Position numbers and translations under genes: made by a program. This document shows positions 21,809 through 39,428 of a stretch of DNA of 39,428 bases, one piece after another. Source of the DNA: Candidatus Micrarchaeota archaeon (GTDB taxonomy: Archaea; Micrarchaeota; Micrarchaeia; Anstonellales; JAGGTN01); the NCBI GenBank assembly GCA_021163645.1, contig JAGGTN010000017.1, forward strand, positions 1-39,428, written 5' to 3'. The notes beneath the pieces were generated by a model, which was not told the DNA's origin, searched no databases, and saw only the letters and a program-made list of their open reading frames with translations. The stretch's first letter is position 1, and every line of letters starts with the position of its first letter.

Positions 21809-21810
21809 AT

Positions 21811-22281: not shown

Positions 22282-22339
22282 ATGATTACTTCATCACAAT
22301 AGTTTTATAAAGATTCAGCGAATAAAAATCAAAAACATA

Positions 22340-22599
22340 CGAGCCCGGAGGGATTTTTGGGCCATATTGAGATTGATTCTCAATATGAGAACCCTCAACC
22401 TGCTGGTTTCCTCTTATTCACCACTCTTAATATCATCAGATTAACTTCTTTTGCTCTTTTTACGTTTCTTGTCATTTCTCGTTACATTTCTTCTTGATCC
22501 TTTTTCCGTTCCTCCTTTTTAGTGCAGGTTTTTCTTTCTTGTAAGAAAGAAAAATGTGCTCCGAAGCCAGCCGCGCTATCCAGGTTACGCTACGGGCCC
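22340..22599 (-). tRNA. tRNA-Arg(TCG) with two introns: 153 nt at 37/38 (22408-22560) and 32 nt at 56/57 (22357-22388)
   Basis: Spliced 75-nt cloverleaf GGGCCCG TA GCGT AACCTGGATA GCGC G GCTGG CTTCGGA CCAGC AGGTT GAGGG TTCAAAT CCCTC CGGGCTC G; central helices CTTC/GAGG and GGGT/GCCC with 3-nt bulges at the inferred cut sites. Confidence 0.93.
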
Positions 22600-22666
22600 G
22601 CAACAAATACATTTTATCTTTATAAATATTTAAATGTTTCAATTTTCCAAATTGAAATTTAATTGA

Positions 22667-23197
22667 TCAATCTTTCGCCTTAGCATAACAAATTTCTTTC
22701 TGGTAATCCATACTGACTAATTTCAATATCTTGTTTTCTTCGATCTCTTGGCATGACTGATTCATGTGCGTTATACTAGCTAAATCTATCAAACAATCAT
22801 TCTTAATAGACTTGCGATCAATCCTTTTACATATATCAACTAAACTGTTTATCTGTACTTGGTATGATTCATCATTTTTCTTTTTATACATTTCTTGATT
22901 GGCAGCTACAACCGCTATCATATGATAACAATCATTATTGAATTTTTCAACGTCGTTCTCACATATATCTAAAGCAATAGATGGATTATCTGGATTAATC
23001 ATATACTCATAGCTTGCTTTTCTCATGTAACAGTAATCTTTATTATATGCATCATGATACTGTTCACAATCTTGTTGGGGTGATAATCCAGTACAACCAC
23101 TAATACTTATAAACGCAAATAAAGCGAATGCAAACGCGAGGATAATTATTATATAAGTTTTCATTAATCTCATCTCCATATTATCATTCCCAGTCAA
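22667..23197 (-). CDS. Cys-rich secreted lipoprotein
   Basis: Lipobox-like ISGC; repeated C..(I)......C(Y) helical units. Confidence 0.75.
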   Translation of the reverse strand: MTGNDNMEMRLMKTYIIIILAFAFALFAFISISGCTGLSPQQDCEQYHDAYNKDYCYMRKASYEYMINPDNPSIALDICENDVEKFNNDCYHMIAVVAANQEMYKKKNDESYQVQINSLVDICKRIDRKSIKNDCLIDLASITHMNQSCQEIEENKILKLVSMDYQKEICYAKAKD

Positions 23198-23220
23198 TCA
23201 AATAATTATCAAACATACAC

Positions 23221-23470
23221 AATATCAAATCATCAATCATTTCATCATTCATCATCAAACCAGCCTCCCTCAAAATCCAACATCCTCGACGAAAAATCAA
23301 CCAAGCCCCAAACCAAATCCAATCACACAATCCCAACCAAAAACCAAACCAATCAAACAAACCAAATCAATCCAATCCAAGTCCAACCAATCAACCAACC
23401 CAATCACCAATCCCATCCGACCACAAATCAATCCAATCAAACAAACCCCGGTCCAAGAAAAAACAAAAAA
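23221..23470. repeat. A/C-rich mosaic repeat tract C
   Basis: CCAA/CCCAA/TCCAA modules; exact blocks shared with tracts A and E. Confidence 0.85.
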
Positions 23471-23473
23471 TCA

Positions 23474-24700
23474 TTACCTTCCAGTCATCTTATGACTCTC
23501 AAACATCCTTGGCTTATTCAACAATCTAAGGACCACTCTTCTAATACTCTCTGGTGGATAACCCAATTTAATAAATCTCGTATGGCCTCTAACCCCTCTT
23601 CCGCTCGCAGACAACGTAATAAGACCTAACATTTCTAAATCATTCAAATAATCTCTCAACCATCTAGATGTTCTCGGATGTTTAGAATATTTCTTACATA
23701 ACTTCTCATACATTTCGTATACCTCGCCTGAAAACAGCACATCATTTTCACCATATTCACCTATCTTACGATACCTACTTCCTTCTAGCATCAAATTTGC
23801 TATTGCTAACAATACTAACTGTTGATGCTCAGGTAATGTTGATATGATTTCAGCTGCTAGGTCTTCTTCAACACTCCTTCTCGCATCCACAACCTCTTTA
23901 TCAGTCACCTTACTTTTATTTTTATCATCTGATATCTCACCTGCTCTTAAAAGTAGTCTTAGCCCATATCGTGCATCACCCGTCTCCTGAGCTGTGACTG
24001 CTGCTACAAGATTAATCGCTGAATCAGTAACTGCCTTCTTCTTAAAACCTATCACTGCCCTTTGTTTGAGAATTACTTGAAGTTGAACAGCAGTGTAAGG
24101 GGCAAATATCATTTCCGTCTCGTAAAGACTGCTCTTACTCCTCGAATCCAGACTGTCTTTAAAAGATAATTTGTTTGATATACCTATCATAGATACACTT
24201 CCATTCTTAAGTTCATCATTCGCTCGTGTTAGTGAGTAGAGCAAATCATCGAGATCCTTTACCATATCAATTTCATCCAATACGATTACCAAACGAATCT
24301 TCTTCTTATTTATCCATTTTAATAATTTCTCATAAAGGAATGGCAATCCAAACCCTGACTTGTTCAACTCTGGCATGAATGTTTTTGCTATCTTCTGGAC
24401 TACCCTATATCTTGTGTTATACATCCTACAATTAACATAACACATTTTAGCGGTCTCTTTTCCCATGTCTATGAATTTAACCATTACATGTTTTACTGAG
24501 GCTGTTTTACCAGTACCTGTTTTGCCATATATAAAAAGATTATGTGGTTGCTGATCATTCAATGCAGGAGAGATAACTTTCATGATTTTCTCTATTTCCT
24601 TCTCTCTGAAAGGAAGGATTTCAGGGATATAATTAGGCGATAGAGCATCCCTATCTAAAAATACAGTAGGCTTGGATAGTATTTCATCAAAGCTAGGCAT
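23474..24700 (-). CDS. cdc6: Orc1/Cdc6 replication initiation protein
   Basis: Y.P..LPFRE, GKTGTGKT, YVNC, VLDEID, GDAR, C-terminal wH DLEMLGLI...GRGVRG.T. Confidence 0.96.
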   Translation of the reverse strand: MPSFDEILSKPTVFLDRDALSPNYIPEILPFREKEIEKIMKVISPALNDQQPHNLFIYGKTGTGKTASVKHVMVKFIDMGKETAKMCYVNCRMYNTRYRVVQKIAKTFMPELNKSGFGLPFLYEKLLKWINKKKIRLVIVLDEIDMVKDLDDLLYSLTRANDELKNGSVSMIGISNKLSFKDSLDSRSKSSLYETEMIFAPYTAVQLQVILKQRAVIGFKKKAVTDSAINLVAAVTAQETGDARYGLRLLLRAGEISDDKNKSKVTDKEVVDARRSVEEDLAAEIISTLPEHQQLVLLAIANLMLEGSRYRKIGEYGENDVLFSGEVYEMYEKLCKKYSKHPRTSRWLRDYLNDLEMLGLITLSASGRGVRGHTRFIKLGYPPESIRRVVLRLLNKPRMFESHKMTGR

Positions 24701-24774
24701 AGAAAGGTTTATAAGTAAAAGGCTTTTTAATCTTTATGTTCTATAAAATAACATAACAGAATATTTAATAAGAG

Positions 24775-25152
24775 GTGAGTAATATGGGAATATTGGAAAA
24801 GCTTACTGGTGGTTTTGGAGGAAATAAAAATATGAACATCGAAGAATATATAGATACAATGGAAATGGAAGAGATTGATGCACTACATGAACCAGCAGAT
24901 ATGTACATCAAACCAATCGCTCTAGAAAGAGTTGAAGACGTTGATGTTATTATAGATGAACTTAAAAAAGGTAATATAGTACTTCTAAATGTATCAAGAA
25001 TGATACGCTGGCCATCAAAACTCAAAAATTGTATAACATCACTTAAAACCTTTTCAACAAAGATAAATGGAGATATTGCTAGGATAGACGATGATAAGAT
25101 TATGCTAACTCCTAGAAGGATCAAGATTATTAAAAAGACAAAGAAAAGATAA
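24775..25152 (+). CDS. sepf: Cell division protein SepF (start probably ATG at 24784)
   Basis: ELKKGNIVLLNV...INGDIARI....IMLTP: archaeal SepF core. Confidence 0.88.
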   Translation: MSNMGILEKLTGGFGGNKNMNIEEYIDTMEMEEIDALHEPADMYIKPIALERVEDVDVIIDELKKGNIVLLNVSRMIRWPSKLKNCITSLKTFSTKINGDIARIDDDKIMLTPRRIKIIKKTKKR

Positions 25153-25171
25153 ATAATTAGATTTAATTCAT

Positions 25172-25948
25172 TTATTTATTCAGTCTATTAGCTTTAAGTA
25201 TCTTATTTATCTCGCTGAACAAGCCAGTCAATACCTTTGATTCTCTTTTACTTATTATCGTTCGACCAATGATATTATGAAAAGCCTGTTTCATTTTTGA
25301 CGGGAAAGTCAATCTGTCAGACATTAGTTCTACAAGATTATCATACATCTTAAATAGAACTTGTTTATCATCATATGATGCAATCTTATATCGCGTCTTC
25401 ACATTTTCAATACCCTTTACCTTATCCCTATTTCTCATTTTACTTACTTCATATAATACAACAGCAACTGCATGTGATAAATTCATAACAGGGTATTCTT
25501 CGGATGTTGGGATATACATGAATGAATCACATAAACCATATTCCTTATCATTAAGGCCTTTGCTCTCCCTACCAAAAACAATTGCAATCTCATTACTCTC
25601 TGATTCCCTTATAATACTTAATATTTCACTGATAGGCCTTGAGACCCGATAATTTTTCTCATATCTTACTGGAACACCAGTAGTCCCAATAATATATTGA
25701 CATCCTTTAACAGCATTTTCTAACTTATCAACGATATTTGCATTATCTAATATTCTTCTTGCATGTTTAGCGAACATATAAGCAGTATCATCAAGGGCTT
25801 TGGGCTTAACCAAGTATAGATTATCAAAACCAAAATTAGCCATAACCCTTGCAACTGAACCTATATTGATAGGAAATTCTGGTTCGACCAATACTACCCT
25901 AACATTAAACTTGATTCTAACCACCCCAGGCATATCTCCTCTCATCAA
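25172..25948 (-). CDS. trmJ: TrmJ/SpoU-family tRNA 2'-O-methyltransferase
   Basis: VVLVEP..P.NIGSVARVMANFG, VFGRESKGL, YPVMNLSHAV. Confidence 0.93.
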   Translation of the reverse strand: MMRGDMPGVVRIKFNVRVVLVEPEFPINIGSVARVMANFGFDNLYLVKPKALDDTAYMFAKHARRILDNANIVDKLENAVKGCQYIIGTTGVPVRYEKNYRVSRPISEILSIIRESESNEIAIVFGRESKGLNDKEYGLCDSFMYIPTSEEYPVMNLSHAVAVVLYEVSKMRNRDKVKGIENVKTRYKIASYDDKQVLFKMYDNLVELMSDRLTFPSKMKQAFHNIIGRTIISKRESKVLTGLFSEINKILKANRLNK

Positions 25949-25966
25949 ATCCCTATTATTTAATTT

Positions 25967-26659
25967 TTACAATTCTCTCCGAATAGGTAAACATTTTGTT
26001 CCTTTAATAACATACAACACCTCAAAAAACAGAGCCCTCTTAGATATGATTGATAAATCTAGGTTCTTAGAACTTGAAAACCTAAACAGATCATCAATAT
26101 CATTATTTGAACTAACCAGTAGATAAAAAACACCATTATCAGTTAAATGATTATTAACATGAGCCAAGAACCTATCTATGATCTCCCTGCCTTTGATCCC
26201 TCCATCTATATCAATATCCTTTTTATCATCACTTCGCTTATATACTGTTATGTCCTGCTGGGTATCTGATAGAGATTCAATAGGAACGTATGGCGGATTG
26301 AAAACAATTATATCTTTACCTCCACAAGGAACCTGATCAAATAAATCTGATTGAAAGACTTCCATTTTCATATTATTCAATCGTGCATTCATCTGAGTAA
26401 GTTTAACTGCAGATGGATTAATATCTACAGCAGTTACATCAAAATACTCTGCTAATAAAAGGCTTATTAACCCGGTACCACAACCTAACTCAAGCGCTTT
26501 TGATTTTACTTTTTCATAATTTTTATATTCAACAGAACATTCACTAAGAGATTCACCTAATTCTTCTTTTAATGTTTCAAATAAAAGAAATGTATCCTCT
26601 GATGGGGCATACACACTATCATTTAATTCTAAGTGATAACCATACATATCAACAGTCAT
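25967..26659 (-). CDS. HemK/PrmC (MTQ2-like) release-factor Gln methyltransferase
   Basis: VYAPSEDTFLL, LELGCGTG, FNPPY, GG..GREIIDRFL. Confidence 0.9.
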   Translation of the reverse strand: MTVDMYGYHLELNDSVYAPSEDTFLLFETLKEELGESLSECSVEYKNYEKVKSKALELGCGTGLISLLLAEYFDVTAVDINPSAVKLTQMNARLNNMKMEVFQSDLFDQVPCGGKDIIVFNPPYVPIESLSDTQQDITVYKRSDDKKDIDIDGGIKGREIIDRFLAHVNNHLTDNGVFYLLVSSNNDIDDLFRFSSSKNLDLSIISKRALFFEVLYVIKGTKCLPIRREL

Positions 26660-28320
26660 ATTATCAACACGCTCAAATCAATCTCACAAGCAGATACAGG
26701 CATCTGAATTCCAAATTTTTCCAATACATTTGGATGAACCTCCCCAATAAATCCAATCTCTTTATCATCAACAACGACATTCGCACATCGCCCAGGGATA
26801 AATGTCGGATGATTCATTCTCTTTATTTCTATATGATATCCTAATAATTTCATCGTCTTTGTTAAGATACGTTTTGTATCGGTAAAGGTTATCGATTCAC
26901 CAGACATGATGAATGAAAACATTTTATGGTTTACAAATATATTCTCATTCCTATCTGTACTACCTCTTCTAACAACATCAGAAATCTCAAATAATTTTAT
27001 TGGGTATGACCTTTCCCTATTAATACTTAATGAGCGAAGGAGTTCTGGTAGAAGCCAATATCTTACCATATTAACCTCTGTCGCTTTTGCTTTACTTATT
27101 CGCACATACACTTTACTATCAGGCATATAATTTGTCATATCAAATTGATATATTTTTGATGTTAATCCAAGAGTAAATGTTTCAAGGAACTCAAAACCAA
27201 TCATAATCTCTCTCATACGGTCTATCATAATTTCCTGATTAAATATATTTCCTATTGTAAATACAGGGCTCATTCGTGGCTCCAACCTATCATAAGTATA
27301 GGCCCTTCCTATATCATCAACGACATCTATTGGATGGATGATATCCACACGATACGGAGGGATTAATATCTTATTCTGTTTGATTATATAACCCATCTTC
27401 ACAAGAAAGTTGTTCATTGTTTTTTTATCCATCTTATCAATACCCAATATTTCAGATACATATTCTGGTTTGACATCAATACTCTCATAATTAAAATCTG
27501 GTGTGGTTGTAGTCTCTTTTTCATATTCTATTTTTACAGACATGATTTTACCTCCCATATCCTTAAACATACATGCGAGAATGTTAATCACATTCATAAC
27601 AGTTATCTTTCTTGTGCCTGTTACCTCAACAAAAAACTCCTTTGTATCCACTGTGATACGCCCTGATGTTTCTGAATTGATGATGGGAGGCATTGATAAA
27701 ACATCATTCTTAGAATCTACAAGAACAGGATATCGCTCTTTATTTTTAAGGAGATGAGCATATTCTCTACCAGTAGGATGTTTTGTAAGAATATCATCAC
27801 CTGTCATCTCTTTTAATGCTCCTAATGGAATGAATTTTATCATTTTTGGAATATACGCTGTAAATATTATTGGTGGTTTAATCTTATTCGATGGATATAT
27901 TCCAATCGCTGCTGCTTCCCTACCGCGACATAATGTATCATGTAATTTTTCTTGAACATATATCATTTCTTTAAGTTGTTCCTCTGTTATTTTTAACCCC
28001 TTAACCAAGAACCCACCAATATAAGGTCTTATACCACGTAATGACTGGTCAACCTTAATCACCCAATCTGATTTTTCATCTACCTTATATTGTTTTGGAT
28101 TTTCGATATCTAGATAATACCTGATAGCGCGTGCAAGACCGTATGACGACAATAGGTCTGGTCTGTCAGGAGTTATCTCAATCTTATATTCATCATCTGA
28201 GACACTATCTAATTCCATCCCAAACTGGAACAATAACTCCCATAACTGTTTATCATTAAGTTTTTTACCGAGCAATTCACTTAACTTATCCTTTTTAATA
28301 TCTAATATCGGCATATTCAT
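26656..28320 (-). CDS. pheT: Phenylalanyl-tRNA synthetase beta subunit
   Basis: PDRPDLLS, SMPPIINS, PPYRVDIIHPIDVVDDI, GEVHP. Confidence 0.96.
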   Translation of the reverse strand: MNMPILDIKKDKLSELLGKKLNDKQLWELLFQFGMELDSVSDDEYKIEITPDRPDLLSSYGLARAIRYYLDIENPKQYKVDEKSDWVIKVDQSLRGIRPYIGGFLVKGLKITEEQLKEMIYVQEKLHDTLCRGREAAAIGIYPSNKIKPPIIFTAYIPKMIKFIPLGALKEMTGDDILTKHPTGREYAHLLKNKERYPVLVDSKNDVLSMPPIINSETSGRITVDTKEFFVEVTGTRKITVMNVINILACMFKDMGGKIMSVKIEYEKETTTTPDFNYESIDVKPEYVSEILGIDKMDKKTMNNFLVKMGYIIKQNKILIPPYRVDIIHPIDVVDDIGRAYTYDRLEPRMSPVFTIGNIFNQEIMIDRMREIMIGFEFLETFTLGLTSKIYQFDMTNYMPDSKVYVRISKAKATEVNMVRYWLLPELLRSLSINRERSYPIKLFEISDVVRRGSTDRNENIFVNHKMFSFIMSGESITFTDTKRILTKTMKLLGYHIEIKRMNHPTFIPGRCANVVVDDKEIGFIGEVHPNVLEKFGIQMPVSACEIDLSVLII

Positions 28321-28395
28321 TCACCCTTTATTTCTCTCATGCTATTTTGATTTTATTTTATCTTTTAATCTCACTGTCATATAATAATTAAATTC

Positions 28396-29955
28396 TTATA
28401 ATTTAAATTCAGGTATTTTATAATTTCTCAACCAATTAACATCACAAGTGTGTCCAATTAATTTTCTAATATCATTTAAATTATACATAAGCATCGCTAA
28501 TCTCTCCAATGCAAGACCCCATGCAATTACAGGAACATTAATATTATATGGTGCAAGACTTTCTGGTCTAAACATCCCTGAATTACCAACTTCTATCCAT
28601 TTATTTAAGGTATTATGATACGCAAAGATTTCTGCTGATGGCTCTGTATATGGATTGTAGGTCGGCTTAAATCTTAGTTTATTTATCCCCATTTTATCAT
28701 AAAATTCTCTAATATAACCAAAAAGATCTCTCATTGTAAGGCCATCTGCTGCAATAAACCCTTCTATCTGATGAAATTCTGGAAGATGAAATTTATCTAT
28801 TGCTTCATTCCTAAATACCCTCCCAATTGAAAAATATTTAACAGGAGGAGAGATACCTGCCGCGAGAACCCTGAATGAAAGGCATGTAGTATGCGACCTA
28901 AGAATCAATTCTTTTGTAACATTTTCATCCCATAAGAATCGCCAGCCTTTAGATCCAGTTGTACCTCCTGTTTCATGGACCTCTTTAACCTTCCTAACAA
29001 GTTCCTTATTGTATATCTTACCTTTTATCCCTAAATAGAAAGTATCTTGAACATCACGTGCAGGATGATCCTGTGGGATAAACATAGCATCCATATTCCA
29101 AAAGACAAGATCTACCCAATCTCCTTTCATCTCTTGGAACCCCATCTCCCTAAAAACATCCCTAACATTCTCAGATACTAACCTTAACGGATGTTTTCTA
29201 CCTCCATCTATATCAGGAACTGGCGATTCAACATCGTAAGCTCTGAATGATTTCCCTTTCCACTCTTTATTAATTATCACGTCACGTGTGACACGATCGA
29301 TAAAATTAGTAGAAATGGTTTTGATCGCATTTTTCATCTTTTTACTAAGAGGAGTCAGCTTGATTGTGAGTATCTCTTTCTCCTTTTTTTCTATCAACCC
29401 TCTTTTAATGAGCTCTTTCTTCACTTTATCATCTTTAATATCATTGACTTGCCCAGTACTGCTCATCATGATTTTCTGAAGCACTTTCTTAATAGGTAGA
29501 GCATGAGAATAATCATACGACTTTTTTATTGTTAGAAATCCCTTATCAACAGTAATGAGGCCTAATTTCTTAAGTTCTCCTAATGCGATATTGGTTTCAG
29601 ATTTATCCAATGATGCCTTTGAAATTTCTGATACTCTTACACCTTTACCAACACTCCTAAGCCATGAAAATAACCTTTCTTCAGGAAGGCCTTGTTTGAC
29701 TATTTTTCTGCCCCTCTCTGTTATAACATAGACAACCTGATTTTGTTTAGACAGTTCAACAAGCCCTTTATTTTCAAGGTACATCAACGCTCTCTTAACC
29801 CCTACTTCATTCATTTTTACATTGTCTTTTTCATTCTCTTTCCTAATCAACTGCTCATTAGTAACTACCTTACTATCTGCCTGATAGAGAAATAATCTCT
29901 TAAGAAGTTCTATTTCATTTCTACTCAACATATTAATTATATCTTTATCTTCCAT
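28396..29955 (-). CDS. pheS: Phenylalanyl-tRNA synthetase alpha subunit
   Basis: PQDHPARDVQDTFY, FRNEAID.FHLPEFHQIEG, YNPYTEPS, WGLALERL. Confidence 0.97.
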   Translation of the reverse strand: MEDKDIINMLSRNEIELLKRLFLYQADSKVVTNEQLIRKENEKDNVKMNEVGVKRALMYLENKGLVELSKQNQVVYVITERGRKIVKQGLPEERLFSWLRSVGKGVRVSEISKASLDKSETNIALGELKKLGLITVDKGFLTIKKSYDYSHALPIKKVLQKIMMSSTGQVNDIKDDKVKKELIKRGLIEKKEKEILTIKLTPLSKKMKNAIKTISTNFIDRVTRDVIINKEWKGKSFRAYDVESPVPDIDGGRKHPLRLVSENVRDVFREMGFQEMKGDWVDLVFWNMDAMFIPQDHPARDVQDTFYLGIKGKIYNKELVRKVKEVHETGGTTGSKGWRFLWDENVTKELILRSHTTCLSFRVLAAGISPPVKYFSIGRVFRNEAIDKFHLPEFHQIEGFIAADGLTMRDLFGYIREFYDKMGINKLRFKPTYNPYTEPSAEIFAYHNTLNKWIEVGNSGMFRPESLAPYNINVPVIAWGLALERLAMLMYNLNDIRKLIGHTCDVNWLRNYKIPEFKL

Positions 29956-29957
29956 AC

Positions 29958-30290
29958 AATCAATCCCTAATCAACATCATTCATTTCATCATTAATCATC
30001 AAACCAACTTAACCAAATCAACCAACCTAAGCCAAACCAAGCCCAAATAAAAAATCAAATAAACATCATCAACCAAATCCAAACCTGAACACCAATCCAA
30101 GACCCAAACAATCCAAGCCCAACATCATCAAACAAAAAATAAAAAACAATCCCAACAAACCAACCAAACCAAATCAATCCCATCCAACCCCAAATAAAAA
30201 ATCAAATAAACATCATCAAACAAAAAACCAAAAACCAACCCCAACCAACCCAACCAAAAACCAACTAATCCAACCAAAAATCAATCATAC
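29958..30290. repeat. A/C-rich mosaic repeat tract D (longest)
   Basis: Same modules as the other tracts; internal exact 31-nt repeat 30042-30072 = 30189-30219. Confidence 0.85.
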
Positions 30291-30397
30291 ACATCCTCTG
30301 ACTTGCTTGCTCTTAATACATTTGTCATTCATCCTTCGCTTATCTGTAAACTCCTCTTTATCTATGATTTATCCAAGAATTAAATTTATATTAATTA

Positions 30398-30550
30398 TCA
30401 CTTCCTCCTAAAAAATCTTTCAAAAATACTAGAAGGTTTATTCATACGTTTGAGTACATAAGTCCTATGAATATCAGGATTCAATATAAGAAAACTCAAG
30501 ACCCTTTGTTTCTTTTTAGTTGATTTACGTTTATCATACATCTCATTCAT
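30398..30550 (-). CDS. Candidate small basic protein (50 aa)
   Basis: MNEMYDKRKSTKKKQRVLSFLILNPDIHRTYVLKRMNKPSSIFERFFRRK; GGGTG RBS-like element upstream. Confidence 0.4.
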   Translation of the reverse strand: MNEMYDKRKSTKKKQRVLSFLILNPDIHRTYVLKRMNKPSSIFERFFRRK

Positions 30551-30650
30551 ATTCTCGCACCCTTATCATCATGCTCATAAACATACACATTATTCTGCTC
30601 TTCCATGTCAAAGTAAGTTATGAGCAAATAATTTTATACGTACTTATTTT

Positions 30651-31436
30651 TTATTCTTTACTTATATATCCTTCTTTAAGAAGCATATCTAACCCTTCCT
30701 CTACCCTTGCCGGAGTAATATTATATATATTCGCAAATTCACTTACATTTATCTTTCCCCTATGGTTCTTCAACCATATCAATAATTCTTCTTTAAGCGT
30801 CTCGTTGGTCAGGCCCTCAAGTTTTCTTATACGTAAATTGAGTTTATCTATTTGTCTCTCATAATCTGCTACAAGTTTATTATTCTTATCCAAAAGATTA
30901 TATAATTCATCTCTCTCCTTCTTTGTATTTGTATATTGTTCTTTAAGAAGTTCATACTTATTAGATAGAATTGCATAATTATCTGTAAATAGTTCTGAAA
31001 CAACAGACAATGATTCAAGAACTCTTCTCATAATGCTTTTCCAGTCAATATCATATTCAGATAATATTAACAACACCTTCAATGTCAAAGCAGATACATC
31101 TACTTTGCGTTTATTCATATTAATCTCTTTAGGGATTGAATATTCTACGTCAATACCGTCTTTGCGAAATATATACTTTGTATACAGATAAGGTTTGCCT
31201 TTGATATCCTCACGCTCGACGTTCATCGCAATTATCTCATTCTTCTTCACATCAATATTCGAGAATCCTAACTGTGAAATCTCTTTCATCACATGACTAA
31301 GAGTAGTTTTAAGTTTGGCTTTCACTGTAAAATTCTTAATAATATCCTTCCTTTCTTTTTGTCTTGCTTCTTTTGTTCCATTATCTTTCTCATTCTCTTT
31401 TCCATCTTTCTTTTTCCTTATCCGTATTCTTCTCAC
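30651..31436 (-). CDS. Coiled-coil protein with C-terminal wHTH; last gene of the Ced/T4SS-like cluster
   Basis: Directly abuts the ATPase stop; GKINVSEFANIYNITPARVEEGLDMLLKEGYI. Confidence 0.75.
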   Translation of the reverse strand: MRRIRIRKKKDGKENEKDNGTKEARQKERKDIIKNFTVKAKLKTTLSHVMKEISQLGFSNIDVKKNEIIAMNVEREDIKGKPYLYTKYIFRKDGIDVEYSIPKEINMNKRKVDVSALTLKVLLILSEYDIDWKSIMRRVLESLSVVSELFTDNYAILSNKYELLKEQYTNTKKERDELYNLLDKNNKLVADYERQIDKLNLRIRKLEGLTNETLKEELLIWLKNHRGKINVSEFANIYNITPARVEEGLDMLLKEGYISKE

Positions 31437-32957
31437 TTAATCAACCTCCAACTTAGATATCTTATCAGATTCCACACCCATCTTAACTCTCTGTAATTCA
31501 GAGAACAAACTAGTAATATCAATGTCTCTTATCCCCAACTCTCTCAGAAATGTTATCACAACTGACCGTGCATACCCAAACTTTTCAAGGTCGCTGATTA
31601 TCTCAATAATATTCAATCGATTATCATTCTTCTCAAACTTCATAGATATCTGAGCAACCTGCTTATCAGTCAACCCAAATTCTAACAGTTTACGCCTAAA
31701 TGATTCCTTTTCAAATTCCAAATCCATCTTATCACCAACCAAAATATGTATTGTTATCAAAGGCTCCTCACCATCTATCCTACTCAACAAGAAGATATTT
31801 GAATATGATGTGCGCTTATAATATGCTTGATAGACAGCGCATTCACCTACACCAAACCGTCCGATATGCTCAGCTATGAAATCAGAATAATTCAGCGACG
31901 ACCGGACATAATCCTTAAACTCCTTAAAGAGCAATCGCATAACAAACATTGTGCCAACATTAGAGAATATCGCTTTATTAACATCGGTTGGATTTTGGCT
32001 CGCAACTATCAAACTGAACTGATACTTCCTACCTTCCCGAACAATCGTAATCAAATCACTACGTTCATCCTTAGCAATCTTCCATGCTTCATCAGCAACG
32101 ATAAATAGCTTGATTCCTTTACCAGGATGCCAACCTTCATCTCTCATCATTTCCTTGATAAATTGAAGGATTGTCAGGCCTGCTAGACTGCGTATTTGTT
32201 CGGAAGGTAAGCCATGAAGGTCAAGACACACCAATCCACTTGATATCAACTTATGCACTTTTAGTGTTGATTTCTTAGCAAAATAATCATTACCTGGGAT
32301 TATAAATTTTGACAATACTGATATTGCTTCATTGATCTCATCTCTCTTCGCCTCACTCTTCTCTCTTCTCTTTATCTCATTTAGATTTTTGATAACATCC
32401 TTTAATAGAGGTGGCTCTCTTTTCTGATCCTTCTTAACAAGATCAAACCCTTTTTCCTTATAAGCATTCTCTATCGCATCCTCAATCGCACGCTTCTGTG
32501 ACGCTGTATGACCCAAATCAGTTAATATTTCAAGTGCAGTCATTATCTGTTTCGCTCGATCAAGAGGTTTCATCCCCGCGAGGTCCAAGAGATTGATATA
32601 ATCACCTTTACCCAATGATACTACCTTACCACCAACCTGTTTCACCCATTTATTATACTCTCCTACCCAATCTAATATCAATGCATTGGTGTTCCAAACA
32701 AGATTAGCACGCGTTAGGAATGTCTTAACTAGATATGACTTACCTGCTCCTGTAACACCAACAACTGATATGTGGGGATTGATCAAATTTTTAAAATTCC
32801 AATAATATGGAACATTTAATATGCTCGTCCTAGCAAGATAGACTGCTTCGGTGGGATTACTCATTAATAATTCTTTGTTGGGTTCTGGTGGATGCACAAA
32901 GAAACATCTAGCCCCTAACTCACTGCTTAATACCTTTTGTGGACGAAGTATTCCCAT
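31437..32957 (-). CDS. VirB4/HerA-FtsK family ATPase (CedB-like)
   Basis: NPHISVVGVTGAGKS, ILDWVGEY, IVADEAW, REGRKY..SLIVASQNP.D. Confidence 0.88.
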   Translation of the reverse strand: MGILRPQKVLSSELGARCFFVHPPEPNKELLMSNPTEAVYLARTSILNVPYYWNFKNLINPHISVVGVTGAGKSYLVKTFLTRANLVWNTNALILDWVGEYNKWVKQVGGKVVSLGKGDYINLLDLAGMKPLDRAKQIMTALEILTDLGHTASQKRAIEDAIENAYKEKGFDLVKKDQKREPPLLKDVIKNLNEIKRREKSEAKRDEINEAISVLSKFIIPGNDYFAKKSTLKVHKLISSGLVCLDLHGLPSEQIRSLAGLTILQFIKEMMRDEGWHPGKGIKLFIVADEAWKIAKDERSDLITIVREGRKYQFSLIVASQNPTDVNKAIFSNVGTMFVMRLLFKEFKDYVRSSLNYSDFIAEHIGRFGVGECAVYQAYYKRTSYSNIFLLSRIDGEEPLITIHILVGDKMDLEFEKESFRRKLLEFGLTDKQVAQISMKFEKNDNRLNIIEIISDLEKFGYARSVVITFLRELGIRDIDITSLFSELQRVKMGVESDKISKLEVD

Positions 32958-32966
32958 GATGGCACC

Positions 32967-33758
32967 TCACAACGCAATATTACTAAATTCTGTTTCAGAT
33001 GCAGGGATAAATGTTTCCCATTCAAAAATTCTTTTCATATCCTCACCTATTAACTGATGAACCTCAACGTTCAACGCGTTACCAACAACTGATTTAACCT
33101 CATTACCCTGAGATTTTGCTCTAATGATTGCTTCCTCTTTTGTCGTTCCTTTAGCCGTTGTCATCATATAACAAACAACCTCCATAGGTTTCTCACCTGA
33201 TGTTAATCGTTCGAGTTGTCTGTTCCACATGGTGATCTCACGATTTAATCGCATCACATCTGCCTCCTTTGTCGAATCATTGGACGCTACCAACTGCGCC
33301 CTCTTAGTTTCACACCAACTCCTCTTCGCCTTTATCTCATCAATCGCATCGCTCAGATTGATGTTTCTGACAAGGACCGAAAACTTAACAATCGATTTCA
33401 CAGAACTGATCGCTCTCTCAAAATATTCAGCAAACAGCCCTCGCTGTTCAGTATTCATTTCAGTTATTGATTCAGGGATTATAGCAACATAAAAAACACT
33501 TGCATAATAATCCTGACCTGATTTCTTAACTATGATGTCCTGGCTAGGCGGTATTTCATACTGTCCAAATCGTTCTGATAACCCAATCATCTTAAATACA
33601 GAAGGCATCACCACATAGCCATACTTCCACAAGATAAATGTCAAGAACAATAAAACCGATGTAATGGATATAGCAACAACATTAAATGTAAATATGGCAA
33701 GCAATAATGCTATCCCACCTCCAGCTAATGTAATAAATGTAATCGTTTTTCCATTCAT
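32967..33758 (-). CDS. Membrane protein (2 N-terminal TM + coiled coil), putative VirB3/VirB4-N-like partner
   Basis: Two TM helices then a soluble alpha/beta domain with a coiled-coil insert; 9 bp upstream of the ATPase. Confidence 0.6.
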   Translation of the reverse strand: MNGKTITFITLAGGGIALLLAIFTFNVVAISITSVLLFLTFILWKYGYVVMPSVFKMIGLSERFGQYEIPPSQDIIVKKSGQDYYASVFYVAIIPESITEMNTEQRGLFAEYFERAISSVKSIVKFSVLVRNINLSDAIDEIKAKRSWCETKRAQLVASNDSTKEADVMRLNREITMWNRQLERLTSGEKPMEVVCYMMTTAKGTTKEEAIIRAKSQGNEVKSVVGNALNVEVHQLIGEDMKRIFEWETFIPASETEFSNIAL

Positions 33759-33828
33759 TAAATCACCTTATTTTTCAAACAATCCTATATTAAACAAACA
33801 TATTAATCTCATCACCTACTCAAAAGTA

Positions 33829-34887
33829 CTATATTATTTCAATTGGAGTAGTTATAAATTCGGCTCCAAGCACCTTTGTCAATTGGATAATCGTGACTAT
33901 TGTTATGAATAAGGATATAATCGGCAATATCACAGACATATAAAATAATGAACCTTCTACATTTGCAGCTGCACCAGTTAGGTGATATGTTGATTCTACC
34001 AGGTCTTTACGGTATTGTGTCATTGATGTCATGTTAGAAAAACTGCTTACACTTCCAGGAGTGCTCAAGTCATAGAATGTTAAATTCTCATAATATTTTG
34101 ATGTAAAATTCGTTATGTCATTGATCGATGAGTATAATTCATCAACATCCGACCGCATAGCAACGACATTTATAAGAGGATAAATTATATACAAACCTAT
34201 CGCAATAGCTATCAACAACCCGCCTACCTTTCTTGTAACGAAAAAGGAGCGGAATATTAAACCTAACGGCAGAAAGACAGTCAAAGCTGTTAAGTATGAA
34301 AACCTTAACAATAAAGCATTAGCAGTGAGTAAGGATTGGTACAATGTTGTCCTGTTAATAGTTGATGATAATGCTTTTGAAATATGAGAAAGACCGCTGA
34401 ACGGTTTATAATCAACAATTCCTGTATGTAATTCAATATCAGATGCAAATGATAATGTATCTATTGATTTTGATAATTCATCAGTGAATGTAAAACTACC
34501 TGTTTCAACATTCTGTATCAAACATTCTGAATAAGATGCCAATGTGAGATTTTCATTGGAGTATGATGAAGAAATGGGCCTGTACCATCCAAGCATATCA
34601 GATCCTGATAAGCACGTGGCTGTAGCATTGGTTGGCAGAAGATCGTAAGAAACAGTGGTAAGCATGGCAACAATCAATCCAAATGCGCCAAGAAGAGCAG
34701 CATTTATAAAGGATTGTAGAATTTCCTCTTTCCCAAAATTCTTCATTTTTTTTGAATTAAGGGCAAAACCCAACCCCAACACAATACCTGCAAATACTAT
34801 TGATATGCCCACAATACTTAGTGCTATCTCAAATCCACTTCCACTTTCCCCTATCTTAAAACTATCTATGATCTCAAATATTCCCAT
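33829..34887 (-). CDS. CedA/VirB6-like polytopic membrane protein
   Basis: About 5 TM; LPLGLIFRSFFVTRKVGGLLIAIAIGLYIIYPL resembles the CedA-type helical hairpin. Confidence 0.6.
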   Translation of the reverse strand: MGIFEIIDSFKIGESGSGFEIALSIVGISIVFAGIVLGLGFALNSKKMKNFGKEEILQSFINAALLGAFGLIVAMLTTVSYDLLPTNATATCLSGSDMLGWYRPISSSYSNENLTLASYSECLIQNVETGSFTFTDELSKSIDTLSFASDIELHTGIVDYKPFSGLSHISKALSSTINRTTLYQSLLTANALLLRFSYLTALTVFLPLGLIFRSFFVTRKVGGLLIAIAIGLYIIYPLINVVAMRSDVDELYSSINDITNFTSKYYENLTFYDLSTPGSVSSFSNMTSMTQYRKDLVESTYHLTGAAANVEGSLFYMSVILPIISLFITIVTIIQLTKVLGAEFITTPIEII

Positions 34888-34939
34888 GTCAAACCTCCAC
34901 TATCAAAAGCTAAAATGAAACGAAAATTAAATGAAGTAA

Positions 34940-35317
34940 TTACCCACCAACAGGTACGTTATCACTTGAAGGACCTACTTGTTGTAATGATTCATACGCT
35001 GATTCCCTTATCATAGTTGAAGCGCCGATTATTGCAGCCATCACAACACCTCCAATCAGCAAACCCACTGCTATACTAACCCATTTTCCTCTACTCTCTG
35101 AGGGCATCGTCTGTGAAATACCAAATACGATTGCTGCTAGTATGATTAGAACTAATGATAACCCAAGCCCAACGTTAGTGAGTGTGGTGCCCAAACTCGT
35201 GATCTTAGATTCTAGCTTAACAGTTGCATAGAATACTCCTGTTAGAATAAGCATTACTAATGGGAGATACATGCTTATCATGTGTAACCTTAATAACAAA
35301 AGATTTCTATTTATCAT
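34940..35317 (-). CDS. VirB2/TrbC-like pilin candidate
   Basis: Signal-like helix plus two hydrophobic helices joined by a short charged loop (PSESRGKW). Confidence 0.55.
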   Translation of the reverse strand: MINRNLLLLRLHMISMYLPLVMLILTGVFYATVKLESKITSLGTTLTNVGLGLSLVLIILAAIVFGISQTMPSESRGKWVSIAVGLLIGGVVMAAIIGASTMIRESAYESLQQVGPSSDNVPVGG

Positions 35318-35451
35318 GATACATCACAATATAATAATAATAAAAAGTTTTATAAATGTTTATTTAAGGAAAAAGAAATAAAAAGATAAATAAGTATTTA
35401 CAAATACTCTGATTCTCCGAAATTTTTTGACTCTTAACTCAATAACTTAAT

Positions 35452-35542
35452 TAGTTGGTTGGTTTTGGGTTGGATGGGATTGGTGATTGGTGATTGGGTT
35501 GGCTTATATTGGTTTTTATTGGGTTGGTTTTGGGTTGGGCTG
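35452..35542. repeat. G/T-rich mosaic repeat tract E
   Basis: Exact 31-nt match to 14731-14761; CCAATCACCAATCCCATCC block shared (inverted) with tract C. Confidence 0.85.
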
Positions 35543-35755
35543 ATTCATAGGTTCACTCATTGAATGGGTCAAATATTTTTAAGAGATACAAATAATCAAA
35601 GTGAAAGATTACAATGATAGGCAGTAAAAAATCATAGTTTGAAAGCAAAGAGCATATTAACAGCTACGATACATAGTTATCATTGTACAGGATAGATAAA
35701 ATAAATAATTGGAATTACAAAGAATAAAAACATCAAAATAAAAAAAGATGATGTA

Positions 35756-36016
35756 AGCCTCAGGAGGGATTTTTGGGCCACTTTTCTTTTTTAGCGCAGG
35801 TTTTTGGATGTCGCCTTCGCCTGCGACACCGAAAGAAAAGTGCGAACCCTTGACCTCGTCCTTTTTTTGAACTTTTCTTTTTTTAGCGCAGGTTTTTGGA
35901 TGTCGCCTTCGCCTGCGACACCGAAAGAAAAGTACATACCAAGGACGCGCTCTACCATTCCAGGCCTTTCTGAAAACTATCTGATTTCAGTCTAAGGCAG
36001 ACTGAGCTACTGAGGC
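35756..36016 (-). tRNA. tRNA-Thr(GGT) with three introns: 42 nt at 17/17a (35958-35999), 74 nt at 37/38 (35863-35936), 71 nt at 56/57 (35773-35843)
   Basis: Spliced 74-nt GCCTCAG TA GCTC AGTCTGGTA GAGC G CGTCC TTGGTAA GGACG AGGTC AAGGG TTCAAAT CCCTC CTGAGGC T; central helices TCAG/CTGG and GGGT/GCCC; the anticodon motif is relaxed. Confidence 0.92.
35780..35933. repeat. Direct repeat of a 62/63-nt structured element (35780-35841 and 35871-35933) forming the bodies of two tRNA-Thr introns
   Basis: Identical except for one T in a homopolymer run. Confidence 0.95.
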
Positions 36017-36081
36017 TTAAACTAAGTATTGAGATATATTATTAACAAAAGTTTAAAAAGATTCATGATTGAAAAGATTTT

Positions 36082-36351
36082 ATGTTTCAAGTCATCATTC
36101 AAGGAAGAGTCCAAGGTGTTGGATTCAGATGGTTAGTTGAAAATATTGCAAAAAGATTAAACATCAATGGATATGTAAAAAATCTATCAGACGGCTCTGT
36201 TGAAATAATGTGCGATTGCGATAAGAATAAACTAGATATATTCTTGAATGAGATAGAGAAAAACATCTCAGCACCGGTCAGGATAGATAATATCATCATC
36301 AATAATGTATCATCAGACAAACGGTTTGATGGATTTACCATTAGGTTTTAA
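36082..36351 (+). CDS. acyP: Acylphosphatase
   Basis: GRVQGVGFR, GYVKNLSDGSVE. Confidence 0.95.
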   Translation: MFQVIIQGRVQGVGFRWLVENIAKRLNINGYVKNLSDGSVEIMCDCDKNKLDIFLNEIEKNISAPVRIDNIIINNVSSDKRFDGFTIRF

Positions 36352-36444
36352 TCTCCAAATGTATCCTATGTTTATTAAACCCACATATTAAATTCACTTA
36401 CCATATCTGAATTGTCTCTATCCCAATCATTATTAGTTAATCTA

Positions 36445-37410
36445 TTAATCCCTTACTCCCTCACTAGTGATTTTGAATATGACTTCACCATCAGGCAGAT
36501 GTGGTGAATCAACCAAGCGAGCCACCCTTTTTTCATTCTTGCTTTTTCTAAGATAAACACGGAATGTAGCCGCATGACCTAATACATGCCCACCAATAGG
36601 AGTTGTCGGATCACCAAAAAGTATTCCTGGATTATCCATTACCTGATTAGTAACCACTACCGCCAGGTTATATTTATCTGACAATTGCTGTAATGTATGA
36701 ATATGCTTGTTAAGTTTCTGCTGACGTTCGCTCAATGCGCCCCTTCCAATATAATCTGCCCTAAACTGTGATGTTAATGAATCAACAATCAATAATTTAA
36801 TATTATGGTCCTTAATGAAATCTTCTGCTTTCTCGACCAATACTATCTGATGGTCAGAATTTATGGCTTTTGCTACATGTATTTTTTTGAGTGCTTCATT
36901 TGGGTCAAGACCCAATGCCTCAGCCATACCTGCAATCCTTTCTGGCCTAAACGAACTTTCAGTATCTATGTACAAAGCTTCACCATTAAGACCGCCCTTA
37001 TCAACAGGCAATTGCACATTCACACTCAACTGAAAACATATTTGAGATTTTGATGAGCCAAATTTACCATAGAATTCTGTTATCGACATTGTTTCTATTC
37101 CTCCTCCCAGCAATTCATCAAGATGTTTTGAGCCGGTAGTGAGCATACCTATTTCTTTACGCCTTTCAAGAATCTGGTCAGCAGATTCAAAAGACATATC
37201 TACTCCTCCTTTTGCGCTCTCTATAATCTTCTTAGCTGCATCGACGGACACATCAGCAATCTCTGTCAATTCATAAGGCGATGCTGCAGCTATCTTCTGC
37301 ACGTCATAACCTGCTGCTTTTAACTTATCTGCCTTTGCTGGACCAACACCAGCAAGGTCTTCTAAATCTACAATTATCTTTGCTCTCTCTTTAACCTTTT
37401 TCTTAATCAT
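36445..37410 (-). CDS. radA: DNA repair and recombination protein RadA (start at ATG 37410 after GGTGA)
   Basis: N-terminal Hh[14 protein letters not shown] motif, [38 protein letters not shown]. Confidence 0.97.
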
Positions 37411-37446
37411 AAAATCACCATTTCCAAATTCAATTTTATTAAGCAA

Positions 37447-37725
37447 TTATTTATTCTGAGGGAAGACTAATAATCTAAGATTACCAATTTTTAACGTATA
37501 AAATTCGTTACCATTCTTGGATACGTTTTTCCACATAGCACCGACATTAACAAGCATTCTTTTGCCATCCCTATCCGTCACAGATTGGACAACACGAAAG
37601 TCTGGTCTTGACCCACCTGTATTATAATTACTAGTTGAGGTTGATTTACTAGAAGGATTATCTGCTTTGTTACTCTTACCTGAATCTGTCAGTGCTTCTT
37701 CCAACTCTAAGATGTCCTCATCCAT
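37447..37725 (-). CDS. Small DUF736-like protein upstream of radA (start at ATG 37725 after GGAGGTG)
   Basis: RPDFRVV...VGAMWKNVSKNGNEFYTLKI resembles the DUF736 pattern PDYRV..IGAAW...S..G..YLSL; acidic, disordered N-terminus. Confidence 0.6.
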   Translation of the reverse strand: MDEDILELEEALTDSGKSNKADNPSSKSTSTSNYNTGGSRPDFRVVQSVTDRDGKRMLVNVGAMWKNVSKNGNEFYTLKIGNLRLLVFPQNK

Positions 37726-37829
37726 ACAATACACCTCCCAAATCAATACTAACAATATTATGGCTAGAAAAATTTATAAACCAACGTAGATAGTGCGTTT
37801 CCAATAAAATATTGAGATAAAATAACATG

Positions 37830-38300
37830 CTATTCTGGTTTGGGCTTCTTATAGAATATCCTCAACCACCAAGGTTTACTCTTCCATTCGTCCAAATGAT
37901 ACTCATAAACCCTTAACGATTCTATCCGCTTCTGCTCATCTAAGATTTTTTTGCGGTTTGCCAATATATTTGCTTGTGCTAATTCAAGGCTCAAATCATC
38001 TACTTCATCAGATAATGAATCAACACGCTCATTTAGCAAATGGATATCCCCATCAAACCTATCAACCTTATCCTTAATCTTTCTTAGTTCTGATCGTAAC
38101 GAACGGGTGGAACTGTTAAGCTTGCTCATATAAACCTGATTACCAACAAACACACCTAATCCAGCCCCTGTGGAGAATCCAACACTGATTAATATTCCAT
38201 AAGTAATTATTTTCTTTATCCTGCTATCCATACGATTTTCATGTGCTCTTTCCTTTTCTAAAATATTATTTACAACCATGTATAATATATGTATCTCCAT
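37830..38300 (-). CDS. Single-TM coiled-coil protein
   Basis: TM GILISVGFSTGAGLGVFVG, heptads, KPWWLRIF tail. Confidence 0.65.
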   Translation of the reverse strand: MEIHILYMVVNNILEKERAHENRMDSRIKKIITYGILISVGFSTGAGLGVFVGNQVYMSKLNSSTRSLRSELRKIKDKVDRFDGDIHLLNERVDSLSDEVDDLSLELAQANILANRKKILDEQKRIESLRVYEYHLDEWKSKPWWLRIFYKKPKPE

Positions 38301-38369
38301 TTTTTAAAACCTTTTGGATATTGTTATAATGTATGGTTTGAAGATTATTTCATAAAATTGAAACGGGTA

Positions 38370-38411
38370 AGCACACTTTTTGCCCGATGAGCAAAAAGTG
38401 CACTAAAAAGG
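38370..38411 (-). repeat. Free-standing REP-like palindrome related to the tRNA-intron elements
   Basis: Minus strand CCTTTTTAGTGCACTTTTTGCTCATCGGGCAAAAAGTGTGCT versus CCTTTTTAGTGCAGGTTTTTCTTTCTTGTAAGAAAGAAAAATGTGCT at 22514-22560 (+). Confidence 0.7.
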
Positions 38412-38477
38412 TAGAGCAAGGATGCTTCATTATGGCAATCAAAGATTGCAACTTGGCGAATTGAATATTTGCCATCC

Positions 38478-38556
38478 TTCAATAGCTATAAAATTCTCCA
38501 TGCTGCTTCATCATATTTGCCGTTCAACATCCTTTCTTCTTCTTTTGTAAGAACAT
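38478..38556 (-). pseudogene. Possible 5' remnant of an aconitase X catalytic subunit
   Basis: GGTG RBS; with frame corrections reads M(F)LTKEEERMLNGKYDEAAWRIL(V)AI. Confidence 0.4.
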
Positions 38557-38620
38557 ATTGAACACCTGCTTTTTAGAATGAATGAACATTACATCTTTAA
38601 AAAAACAACACCTATCATTG

Positions 38621-39425: not shown

Positions 39426-39428
39426 AAA

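Follow-up and report, generated by a model that had tools for sequence, protein, structure and literature searches.

Families of transposed tRNA introns in the Thermoproteales were reportedly described by Fujishima et al. in 2010, in Mol Biol Evol 27:2233. Review passages on these families call the copying mechanism "still unknown" (PMC4090602). For Asgard archaea, a 2026 preprint describes tests of copying, mobile elements and reverse transcription and states that the route "remains open" (10.64898/2026.10.13.758758). How archaeal tRNA introns arrive is an open question; the locus described here supplies an intron body that is defined by its sequence and whose copies a covariance model can follow. 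The locus is contig JAGGTN010000017.1 of a Candidatus Micrarchaeota archaeon (assembly GCA_021163645.1); the whole stretch of 39,428 nt, hereafter the window, is contig C35 of a genome of 894,786 bases (57 contigs, 34% G+C, 88.6% complete). It contains four copies of a short hairpin module, F, three of which lie inside tRNA introns. With a confidence only a little better than even, F is interpreted here as an intron body that duplicates and endures at sites from which the splicing endonuclease can excise it, its arms being held by selection.

All four copies that an earlier, sequence-only reading of the window had reported are indeed present. They are given below with the E-values of R1, a covariance model built from an alignment of 60 copies (A1), 59 from other genomes plus the Arg-intron copy of the window.

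22514..22559 (- strand): module copy 1, in the tRNA-Arg anticodon intron, 1 nt past the 5' splice site (R1 E-value 1.6e-10; also found by motif scan)
35878..35935 (- strand): module copy 2, in the tRNA-Thr anticodon-loop intron, 1 nt after position 37 (R1 E-value 3.6e-4)
35786..35843 (- strand): module copy 3, in the T-loop intron of tRNA-Thr, which opens with the first G of the module (R1 E-value 2.1e-7)
38371..38411 (+ strand): module copy 4, near the left end of a 145-nt repeat (R1 E-value 7.9e-4)

R1 thus recovers 4/4 window copies; the score of copy 1 holds by construction, since window:22514-22559 is among the 60 training rows. This copy is followed by an A/G-rich intron tail of ~105 nt. 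Copies 2 and 3, both in tRNA-Thr introns, are identical at 62/63 aligned positions, and copy 2 opens with GTAC, not GCAC. The three intronic copies all start 0-1 nt past the 5' splice site and, as previously noted, run in the orientation of the tRNA. When at most one mismatch is allowed, the 12-mer GCRCTAAAAARG occurs at four window sites only (22514-22525(-), 35786-35797(-), 35878-35889(-) and 38400-38411(+)), against 0.69 expected, and 0/100 dinucleotide shuffles reach four. No Rfam family attains its gathering score in the window, and permissive searching of 35700-36060 returned only six weak, irrelevant matches.

The module spans 35-60 nt and is laid out as GCAC, a T-run, a variable stem-loop, an A-run, CCTGCAC and TAA(A/G)AA. 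In its fold, a 3-bp closing helix (the 5' GCA with the UGC of CCUGCAC) is followed by a 2x2 internal loop (CU/CC) and then by an inner stem-loop that varies in sequence and length, with a base formed by the T-run paired with the A-run; the tail ACUAA(A/G)AA is left unpaired. The stem measures 6 to 17 bp and the loop has no T-loop features. One common fold shape, with an unpaired A after the GCA:UGC closing helix, was found in 86/95 distinct copies, and in 81/95 the fold lies at z < -2 relative to shuffles. In alignment A1, 95.9% of cells pair versus 84.5% in shuffles (0/500 shuffles reach the observed value), and only 41-59% pair when the partners are slid. Changes on both sides of a pair affect 92 cells versus 27.5 expected and are seen in 5/11 pairs. 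The closing helix is invariant in 60/60 copies and the inner stem covaries, bearing out the initial description of conserved arms around a hairpin that varies yet still pairs. Such figures leave next to no room for chance or low-complexity resemblance: T-runs and A-runs are common at 34% G+C, but the shuffles do not reach the window count, 22 copies exist in the genome, R1 E-values extend to 1e-12, the reversed-pattern controls of the phylum-wide scan below are few, and an exact 20-mer occurs in archaeal records only. A self-contained bulge-helix-bulge within F was ruled out, as the consensus has a 2x2 internal loop in place of two 3-nt bulges separated by 4 bp. Inspection, by eye only, revealed none of the motifs of Box C/D, of hammerhead or other ribozyme cores, of a CRISPR repeat or of an archaeal promoter (TATA at -26), and these candidates were dropped.

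The two genes that house the intronic copies are built as follows.

22340..22599 (- strand): tRNA-Arg(UCG) gene, with an anticodon-loop intron at 22408-22560 (153 nt) and a T-loop intron at 22357-22388 (32 nt)
35756..36016 (- strand): tRNA-Thr(GGU) gene, with introns in the D-loop at 35958-36000 (43 nt), the anticodon loop at 35863-35936 (74 nt) and the T-loop at 35773-35843 (71 nt)

The module-bearing introns measure 153, 74 and 71 nt, longer than the 47-62 nt first assigned to them; the tRNA-Thr D-loop intron and the tRNA-Arg T-loop intron lack the module. ARAGORN detects 0 tRNA genes in the raw window, and switching on its intron option still yields only 5 across the genome; standard annotation therefore badly undercounts tRNAs in such genomes. 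Once the D-loop and T-loop inserts were removed in silico, the program reported tRNA-Thr(GGT) with a 74-nt anticodon intron in 910/2401 boundary combinations. Removal of the tRNA-Arg T-loop insert likewise yielded a 77-nt cloverleaf with a 153-nt intron in 25/49 combinations. ARAGORN labels the latter SeC(tca) because its cut falls within the anticodon; with the canonical 37/38 cut, our own reading of the fold would give Arg(UCG). In both genes, removal of the inserts in silico restores the cloverleaf, as in introns spliced by the endonuclease EndA. Of the 25 matches of the Rfam tRNA model in the genome at E<=10, 8 exceed its cut-off, and most tRNA genes carry one to three introns, many of them in the T-loop at the same position and with a common 3' end, GGCCCAAAAATCCC.

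Predicted folds suggest how F could take part in splicing. In the minimum-free-energy fold of the Thr T-loop intron, the CAC and T-run of the module pair with the distal A-run and GUG over 11 bp, and this helix adjoins a 3-nt UCG bulge and a 4-bp helix of exon GGGU with intron GCCC. The module-free tRNA-Arg T-loop intron follows the same design with a different hairpin, both T-loop introns folding as a 4-bp helix, a 3-nt bulge and an intron-side helix, h'. On the basis of these folds, the module can act as the intron-side helix while a short, site-specific 3' tail pairs with the exon. In the Arg anticodon intron, the anticodon stem is followed by an AAA bulge and a 4-bp CUUC/GAGG helix, and the 5' side has an internal loop. 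The initial suggestion that the element's own stem supplies the intron helix is supported, as a prediction, by the Thr T-loop intron; the Thr anticodon intron has no canonical bulge-helix-bulge in its minimum-free-energy fold. EndA itself is encoded in the genome (PF01974 match, E 2.2e-22; a 422-aa open frame on contig C50), and its length would match that of the three-unit enzyme found in ultrasmall archaea. Broad specificity is reported for the epsilon2-type EndA of these archaea (PMC3239211, PMC5829648).

According to the interpretation preferred here, F would serve in this genome mainly as the body of tRNA introns. Its CAC and T-run would pair with the distal A-run and GUG to form h', and the short, site-specific 3' tail of the intron would pair with the exon to give the 4-bp helix of a bulge-helix-bulge or of a relaxed H-B-h' motif, after which the long, three-unit-type endonuclease would remove the intron. 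New copies would arise, through DNA recombination or an RNA intermediate, when an existing F-intron is duplicated into another tRNA-gene loop and would survive only where the flank can form a splicing motif, while selection on each copy would keep the invariant arms, which are most likely read by a conserved host factor. RNA runs covering window positions 35400-36400 were looked for and none is listed. Four metagenome DNA contig sets on 21500-39428 break at both Thr copies and contain no joint that skips an intron. A split-tRNA arrangement, with termination at the intron T-run and trans-splicing, was set aside, as introns of 71-74 nt are too short for a promoter.

The family is larger than first reported. 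A covariance-model scan of the genome and its relatives, which had been proposed at the outset, identified 22 copies in the 895 kb of this genome at E<=1e-3: 7 in tRNA introns, 3 at tRNA 3' ends, 1 at the stop of an open reading frame (ORF) and 11 in the 145-nt repeat. The intronic matches lie in the tRNA genes for Ala(UGC), Ser(GGA), Arg(UCG), Asn(GUU), Thr(CGU) and, twice, Thr(GGU). Those at 3' ends directly follow the tRNAs for Ala(UGC), Ala(GGC) and Leu(UAA), and the remaining one directly follows the TAA of a 987-codon ORF. Motif scans and nhmmer also turned up further copies, and the introns of tRNA-Trp, Gly, Ile, Val, Lys and Leu(CAA) hold weaker or degenerate ones. Intron copies across the genome begin 0-2 nt past the 5' splice site, as read from the sequence. 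The share in tRNA introns (7/22) compares with tRNA genes making up ~1% of the DNA by our own rough estimate. The family is not confined to tRNA genes: 12/22 matches lie outside these genes and their immediate ends (the 11 in the repeat and the one at the ORF stop).

Extended A/G-rich low-complexity tails come after the module in tRNA trailers and in introns, reaching 390 nt in the case of tRNA-Ala; examples are C3:13270-13620, C3:13715-14000, C42:3950-4232 and C13:28370-28500 of this genome (G000) and window 22408-22513. Within these tails are repeats of ~85 nt in which the 3' arm recurs without its hairpin (AAAGAAAACCTGCACTAAAAG), and one such tail reaches the start of an ORF resembling glycyl-tRNA synthetase, named from its translation.

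Distribution among relatives is patchy. A 15-mer of the 3' arm is present in 6/40 other genomes of the order, with ~0 reversed-pattern controls, and R1 detects the module in 17/151 genomes of the order at 1-21 copies per genome. By family, R1 hits are found in 3/3 genomes of f6, 2/2 of f10, 4/42 of f5, 5/74 of f8 and 0/19 of f9. At the level of the phylum, a two-arm pattern matches 26/401 genomes, of which ~3 look like chance; the reversed-pattern control gave 9 matches in all. When 36 copies from 25 genomes of the phylum were classed by eye, 20 proved to be in tRNA introns (15 in the anticodon loop, 4 in the T-loop and 1 in the D-loop), 6-7 stood directly after tRNA-Leu-type 3' ends (...CCCCT, then GCA), 2 abutted opposite-strand tRNA 5' ends, both tRNAs being Rfam-confirmed, and 7 lay elsewhere. 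In at least six genomes, tRNA-Leu-type 3' ends of the form ...CCCCTGCA overlap the GCA of the module. All intronic copies share the orientation of their tRNA.

Orthologous introns provide a measure of constraint. In tRNA-Gly (6 genomes), tRNA-Glu (5) and tRNA-Thr(CGU) (3, including the source genome), the arms are kept across families as well as the exons are, and the central hairpin and the 3' tail differ. Selection on each copy is suggested by this retention of the arms, and free decay of old copies is not supported.

The family also extends to several phyla. The exact 20-mer AAAGAACCTGCACTAAGAAA was found in 38 stretches of a named genome collection of 596 billion bases, all in records of archaeal metagenome-assembled genomes (MAGs). 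These are labelled Micrarchaeota, Nanoarchaeota, Woesearchaeota, Methanophagales, Methanosarcinales, Methanomicrobia, Bathyarchaeia, Nitrosotalea and Hadarchaeum; true lineages are fewer than labels, because several differently labelled records have near-identical flanks. In an ANME-1-like order, 19/41 genomes match the pattern (3 control matches; ~4 look like chance), with 1-5 copies per genome that flank protein genes, a tRNA and a 23S rRNA. Hadarchaeum and one Nanoarchaeota MAG again hold the module within tRNA introns.

Several individual loci are of note. In a genome of the same order, the module heads a 58-nt insert in 23S rRNA (L008, G018:C36:5964-6008); in an ANME-1-like genome, a 23S rRNA 3' end is followed after 33 nt by the module, and the module after ~70 nt by a tRNA (L067, G406:C38:31399-31430). 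Following one tRNA-Leu there are 2.5 repeats of 57 nt, the unit being the last 9 nt of the tRNA plus the module (L001/L014, G038:C11:7900-8060). A Hadarchaeum-labelled contig (L047) has two full copies and one truncated copy in tandem in a tRNA-Ala anticodon intron and another in the T-loop. In Woesearchaeota-labelled G408 (L050-L059), a second module, GTAAGGG-loop-CCCTTCACGAACCTGC with a common GAACCTGC core, occurs singly or in strings, adjoins copies of the main module and directly follows stop codons.

Copying of the module is supported by three lines of evidence: the Thr intron pair, subfamilies within genomes, and a filled and an empty orthologous site in another order. Hairpin subfamilies are common to copies within genomes; in this one, the Ala and Arg introns and three tRNA trailers share subtypes. 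Closely similar introns are found in different tRNAs and positions of one genome, as the Thr pair and the Ala/Arg subtypes illustrate. The orthologous site lies beside Mre11 genes, where a 133-nt insert ending in the module is present in 4/29 orthologues and where the closest relative of one carrier (91% identical protein) reads stop-T-ATG with no insert; the pair would reflect either gain or precise loss.

The surroundings of the fourth window copy hold a repeat and an integrase gene.

38351..38494 (+ strand): repeat of ~145 nt, its inverted ends being ATAATATTGAAAC ... GTTCAATAGCTAT (from a blastn search of the genome with window 38251-39428 and a 12-copy alignment)
38621..39428, running off the contig end (- strand): tyrosine recombinase gene (Pfam Phage_integrase plus a SAM-like N-terminal domain), not a member of the module family

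The copy once described as free and intergenic is part of a repeat that recurs on 10 other contigs, full-length on 7 and partial on 3. All 11 copies of the repeat carry the module, and 8 full copies carry both ends. With its terminal inverted repeats and dispersed copies, the repeat resembles a miniature inverted-repeat transposable element. A second palindrome, CACAAATAAATATTTGTG, or a hairpin of the form CCCTGCC...GGCAGGG comes after some of the copies, so that small repeats are nested, and on contig C29 two half copies stand 1.4 kb apart in swapped order. The distance of ~210 bp from module copy 4 to the 3' end of the integrase gene was correctly given (38411 to 38621). The gene is broken in two frames, however, with stops, into a 168-aa N-terminal part (38919-39425) and an 86-aa C-terminal part (38621-38881), and it is the single tblastn locus in the genome. 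Because this broken gene is the only one in the assembly, none of the other 10 repeat copies has an integrase beside it, and the picture of a free copy near an integrase falls away. In the four metagenome contig sets, the region 38244-39428 has 3-5x the depth of its neighbours and many variant letters, from which it follows that related copies exist in the community; in one integrase variant, the stretch between the two frames is replaced by 84 other letters.

The view that F is the remnant of a classical DNA transposon, either a repetitive extragenic palindrome (REP/REPIN)-like element or a miniature element dependent on IS200/IS605 or an integrase, draws on its hairpin with a conserved 5' tetranucleotide, on the tandem or nested copies in the Hadarchaeum tRNA-Ala intron and the Micrarchaeota tRNA-Leu trailer, on one inverted pair (L040), on the filled and empty Mre11 sites and on the inverted-end repeat that carries F here. 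Its probability is nevertheless low. In the 88.6%-complete source genome, a search for Y1/HUH transposases gave 0 matches and no reverse transcriptase was found. Across the phylum, Y1/HUH transposases do not co-occur with F, being present in 6/23 convincing carriers versus 141/401 genomes overall (a tally that includes the genome G205, which is flagged as unpublished). The Y1-rich families are nearly devoid of the module (f13, 48/94 with Y1 vs 1/94 with F; f14, 43/83 vs 0/83). High intergenic copy numbers are not seen, at 1-21 copies per genome in the order; the single Mre11 pair shows no target-site duplication; and viral contigs gave 6 pattern matches, all in unrelated sequence and none a hairpin. 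The broken, unlinked integrase and the arms conserved at orthologous sites likewise fit such an element poorly. The idea of a mobile element that uses tRNA introns consequently survives in part: enrichment in introns (7/22 in the genome; 20/36 in the phylum) and copying stand, the label of a REP-like mobile element is supported only in part because no HUH transposase or reverse transcriptase accompanies F, and a REP-like element driven by a transposase is not supported.

A further body of evidence comes from gene ends. Of 76 distinct copies, 12 have an ORF (60 codons or more) whose end lies -1, 0 or 2 nt ahead of GCAC, and 8 have an opposite-strand ORF whose start is exactly 1 nt from GCAC, involving at least five different genes, among them Mre11- and GatC-like ones named from their translations. 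Opposite-strand tRNA 5' ends lie at +1, 0 and -2 nt from the module. One start-codon case can be explained, from the Mre11 filled/empty pair, by insertion into a 1-nt stop/start spacer; this argument is not universal, because another case lies in a divergent, promoter-like region.

One explanation for this placement is that F is a transcription terminator or 3'-end element, a hairpin that stabilizes 3' ends and has entered introns by accident. Its T-run begins 4 nt past the gene end, where archaeal polymerases and aCPSF1/FttA terminate; the 12 copies directly after stop codons, those after tRNA 3' ends and the one shortly after a 23S rRNA would suit this role, as would T-runs on both strands, a feature of bidirectional terminators. 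This explanation is unlikely, though. F is found inside the only visible genes for tRNA-Asn, tRNA-Trp, tRNA-Thr(GGU) and tRNA-Arg(UCG) in the genome, so an efficient terminator would block the synthesis of these tRNAs. In 8 copies F stands between a likely promoter and the ATG, its T-run precedes rather than follows the hairpin, and the conserved CCTGCAC-TAA part is left unexplained.

A second explanation, somewhat more plausible though still improbable, is that F is a host signal for RNA processing, a minihelix resembling a tRNA acceptor and serving as punctuation. The GCA:UGC helix with its unpaired A-C would copy pairs 1-72, 2-71 and 3-70 together with A73 and C74 of a tRNA-Leu-type acceptor (GCAGGGG...CCCCUGC-A). 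RNase P, the RNA of which is present in the source genome, would cut just 5' of the first G, and RNase Z after the unpaired nucleotide 3' of the helix. Since GCA/UGC is its own reverse complement, F would be functional both ways round, marking the 3' end of an upstream RNA or the 5' end of a downstream one. The boundary rule, by which stop codons lie -1, 0 or 2 nt before the G while the ATG in reverse orientation is always 1 nt on, is best explained in this way, as is the identity of CCUGCA-C with the local tRNA-Leu 3' end. The lack of any ORF boundary within 2 nt of the other end in 76 copies, the tRNA 5' ends on the opposite strand, the overlap of tRNA-Leu-type 3' ends with GCA, the copy 33 nt past a 23S rRNA, the start codon in a divergent promoter region rather than an operon spacer, and arms that are invariant across phyla are all in keeping with it. 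Other features fit less well: T-loop features are missing and the stem varies from 6 to 17 bp; at tRNA 3' ends, a cut by RNase P before the G would take 3 nt off the tRNA; one start-codon case may be a simple insertion into a 1-nt spacer; and the conserved UAA(A/G)AA tail has no role. From general knowledge, a cut by RNase P within an intron would also leave ends unsuited to the usual ligation by RtcB. In its broader form, rather doubtful in our estimation, F would be an archaeal punctuation mark that sets the 5' ends of leaderless mRNAs and 3' ends at stop codons and that seeded introns upon landing in tRNA loops. If true, one element shared by DPANN, ANME-1-like and Hadarchaeota lineages would tie the 3'-end sequences of tRNAs to the processing of gene ends and to the origin of archaeal tRNA introns.

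Set against these alternatives, the interpretation of F as a duplicative, spliceable intron body has weaknesses of its own. It does not predict that the GCAC end falls within 2 nt of an ORF boundary in 20/76 copies and the other end in 0/76. Half of the copies in this genome (11/22) occupy the 145-nt repeat rather than tRNAs or their vicinity, and most copies in other phyla flank protein genes, so "intron module" describes only part of the family. The fold of the Thr anticodon intron counts on the same side. A comparison of the two strands by G:U pairs points in no single direction: the F strand is the more stable in 62/95 copies, but the folds of the reverse strand hold more G:U pairs (53 vs 23). 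Splicing, circular introns and the transcription of non-intronic copies are putative. Finally, arms that stay invariant at orthologous sites are explained by a host function no less well than by a duplicative passenger.

Two observations concern the remainder of the window. In DNA contigs from three runs, 23254 is connected to 30156, and 30074 to 30218, across short stretches of filler letters, which suggests a strain-level rearrangement or a variable segment of ~6.8 kb in the population. Between tRNA-Thr and the 145-nt repeat lies a 333-aa ORF (36445-37446, - strand) that is RadA/Rad51-like, as judged from its translation.

Taken as an intron body, F is seen in many tRNAs, in introns of the anticodon loop, the T-loop and the D-loop; one gene holds it in duplicate, and orthologous introns conserve it. 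It thereby makes testable the source of introns, the direction of their spread and the factor that reads the invariant arms. Literature searches by topic and by motif letters, with supplements and the 2010 original outside their scope, yielded no account of the module, of its copies outside tRNAs or of its spread across phyla, and among the motif-letter matches listed all were unrelated primers. F has a real chance of being something new.

Among described systems, bacterial REP/REPIN elements with their RAYT (REP-associated tyrosine transposase) partners are short palindromic hairpins with a conserved 5' tetranucleotide; they often follow stop codons, are non-autonomous and reach hundreds of copies. 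F resembles them in being a short, palindromic, non-autonomous hairpin with a conserved 5' tetranucleotide that often stands directly after stop codons. It differs in having no HUH/Y1 partner, in numbering 1-21 copies, in being archaeal, in lying inside tRNA genes and in the conservation of its arms at orthologous sites.

The t-elements of plant mitochondria and the tRNA punctuation of animal mitochondria offer another parallel, in which a tRNA-like helix abuts coding sequence and sometimes overlaps a stop codon; to our knowledge, none has been described for archaea. The asymmetry between 0 nt and 1 nt at the boundaries of F would fit cutting by RNase P and RNase Z, although F has no T-loop. 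Integron attC sites share with F a hairpin with conserved outer arms and a variable centre and a tight position at ORF ends, and a tyrosine recombinase lies nearby in the window. F, however, lacks GTT/AAC core triplets and cassette arrays, its flanks are syntenic in related genomes, and the only integrase of the source genome is broken and unlinked to the other copies. Archaeal integrons were reportedly described by Ghaly et al. in 2022.

The transposed introns of the Thermoproteales are similar in that a bulge-helix-bulge context is needed there for a copy to persist, as it would be for F. F departs from them in also occupying sites outside tRNA genes, namely the stops and starts of ORFs, the ends of tRNAs, an insert in 23S rRNA and the 145-nt repeat, settings that do not appear in the review and preprint passages on those introns. 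Moreover, the lineage is another one, a Micrarchaeota-like genome of the DPANN group whose relatives include members of at least three further labelled phyla, and the unit that its copies share is a module with invariant arms and a covarying stem, not similarity of whole introns.

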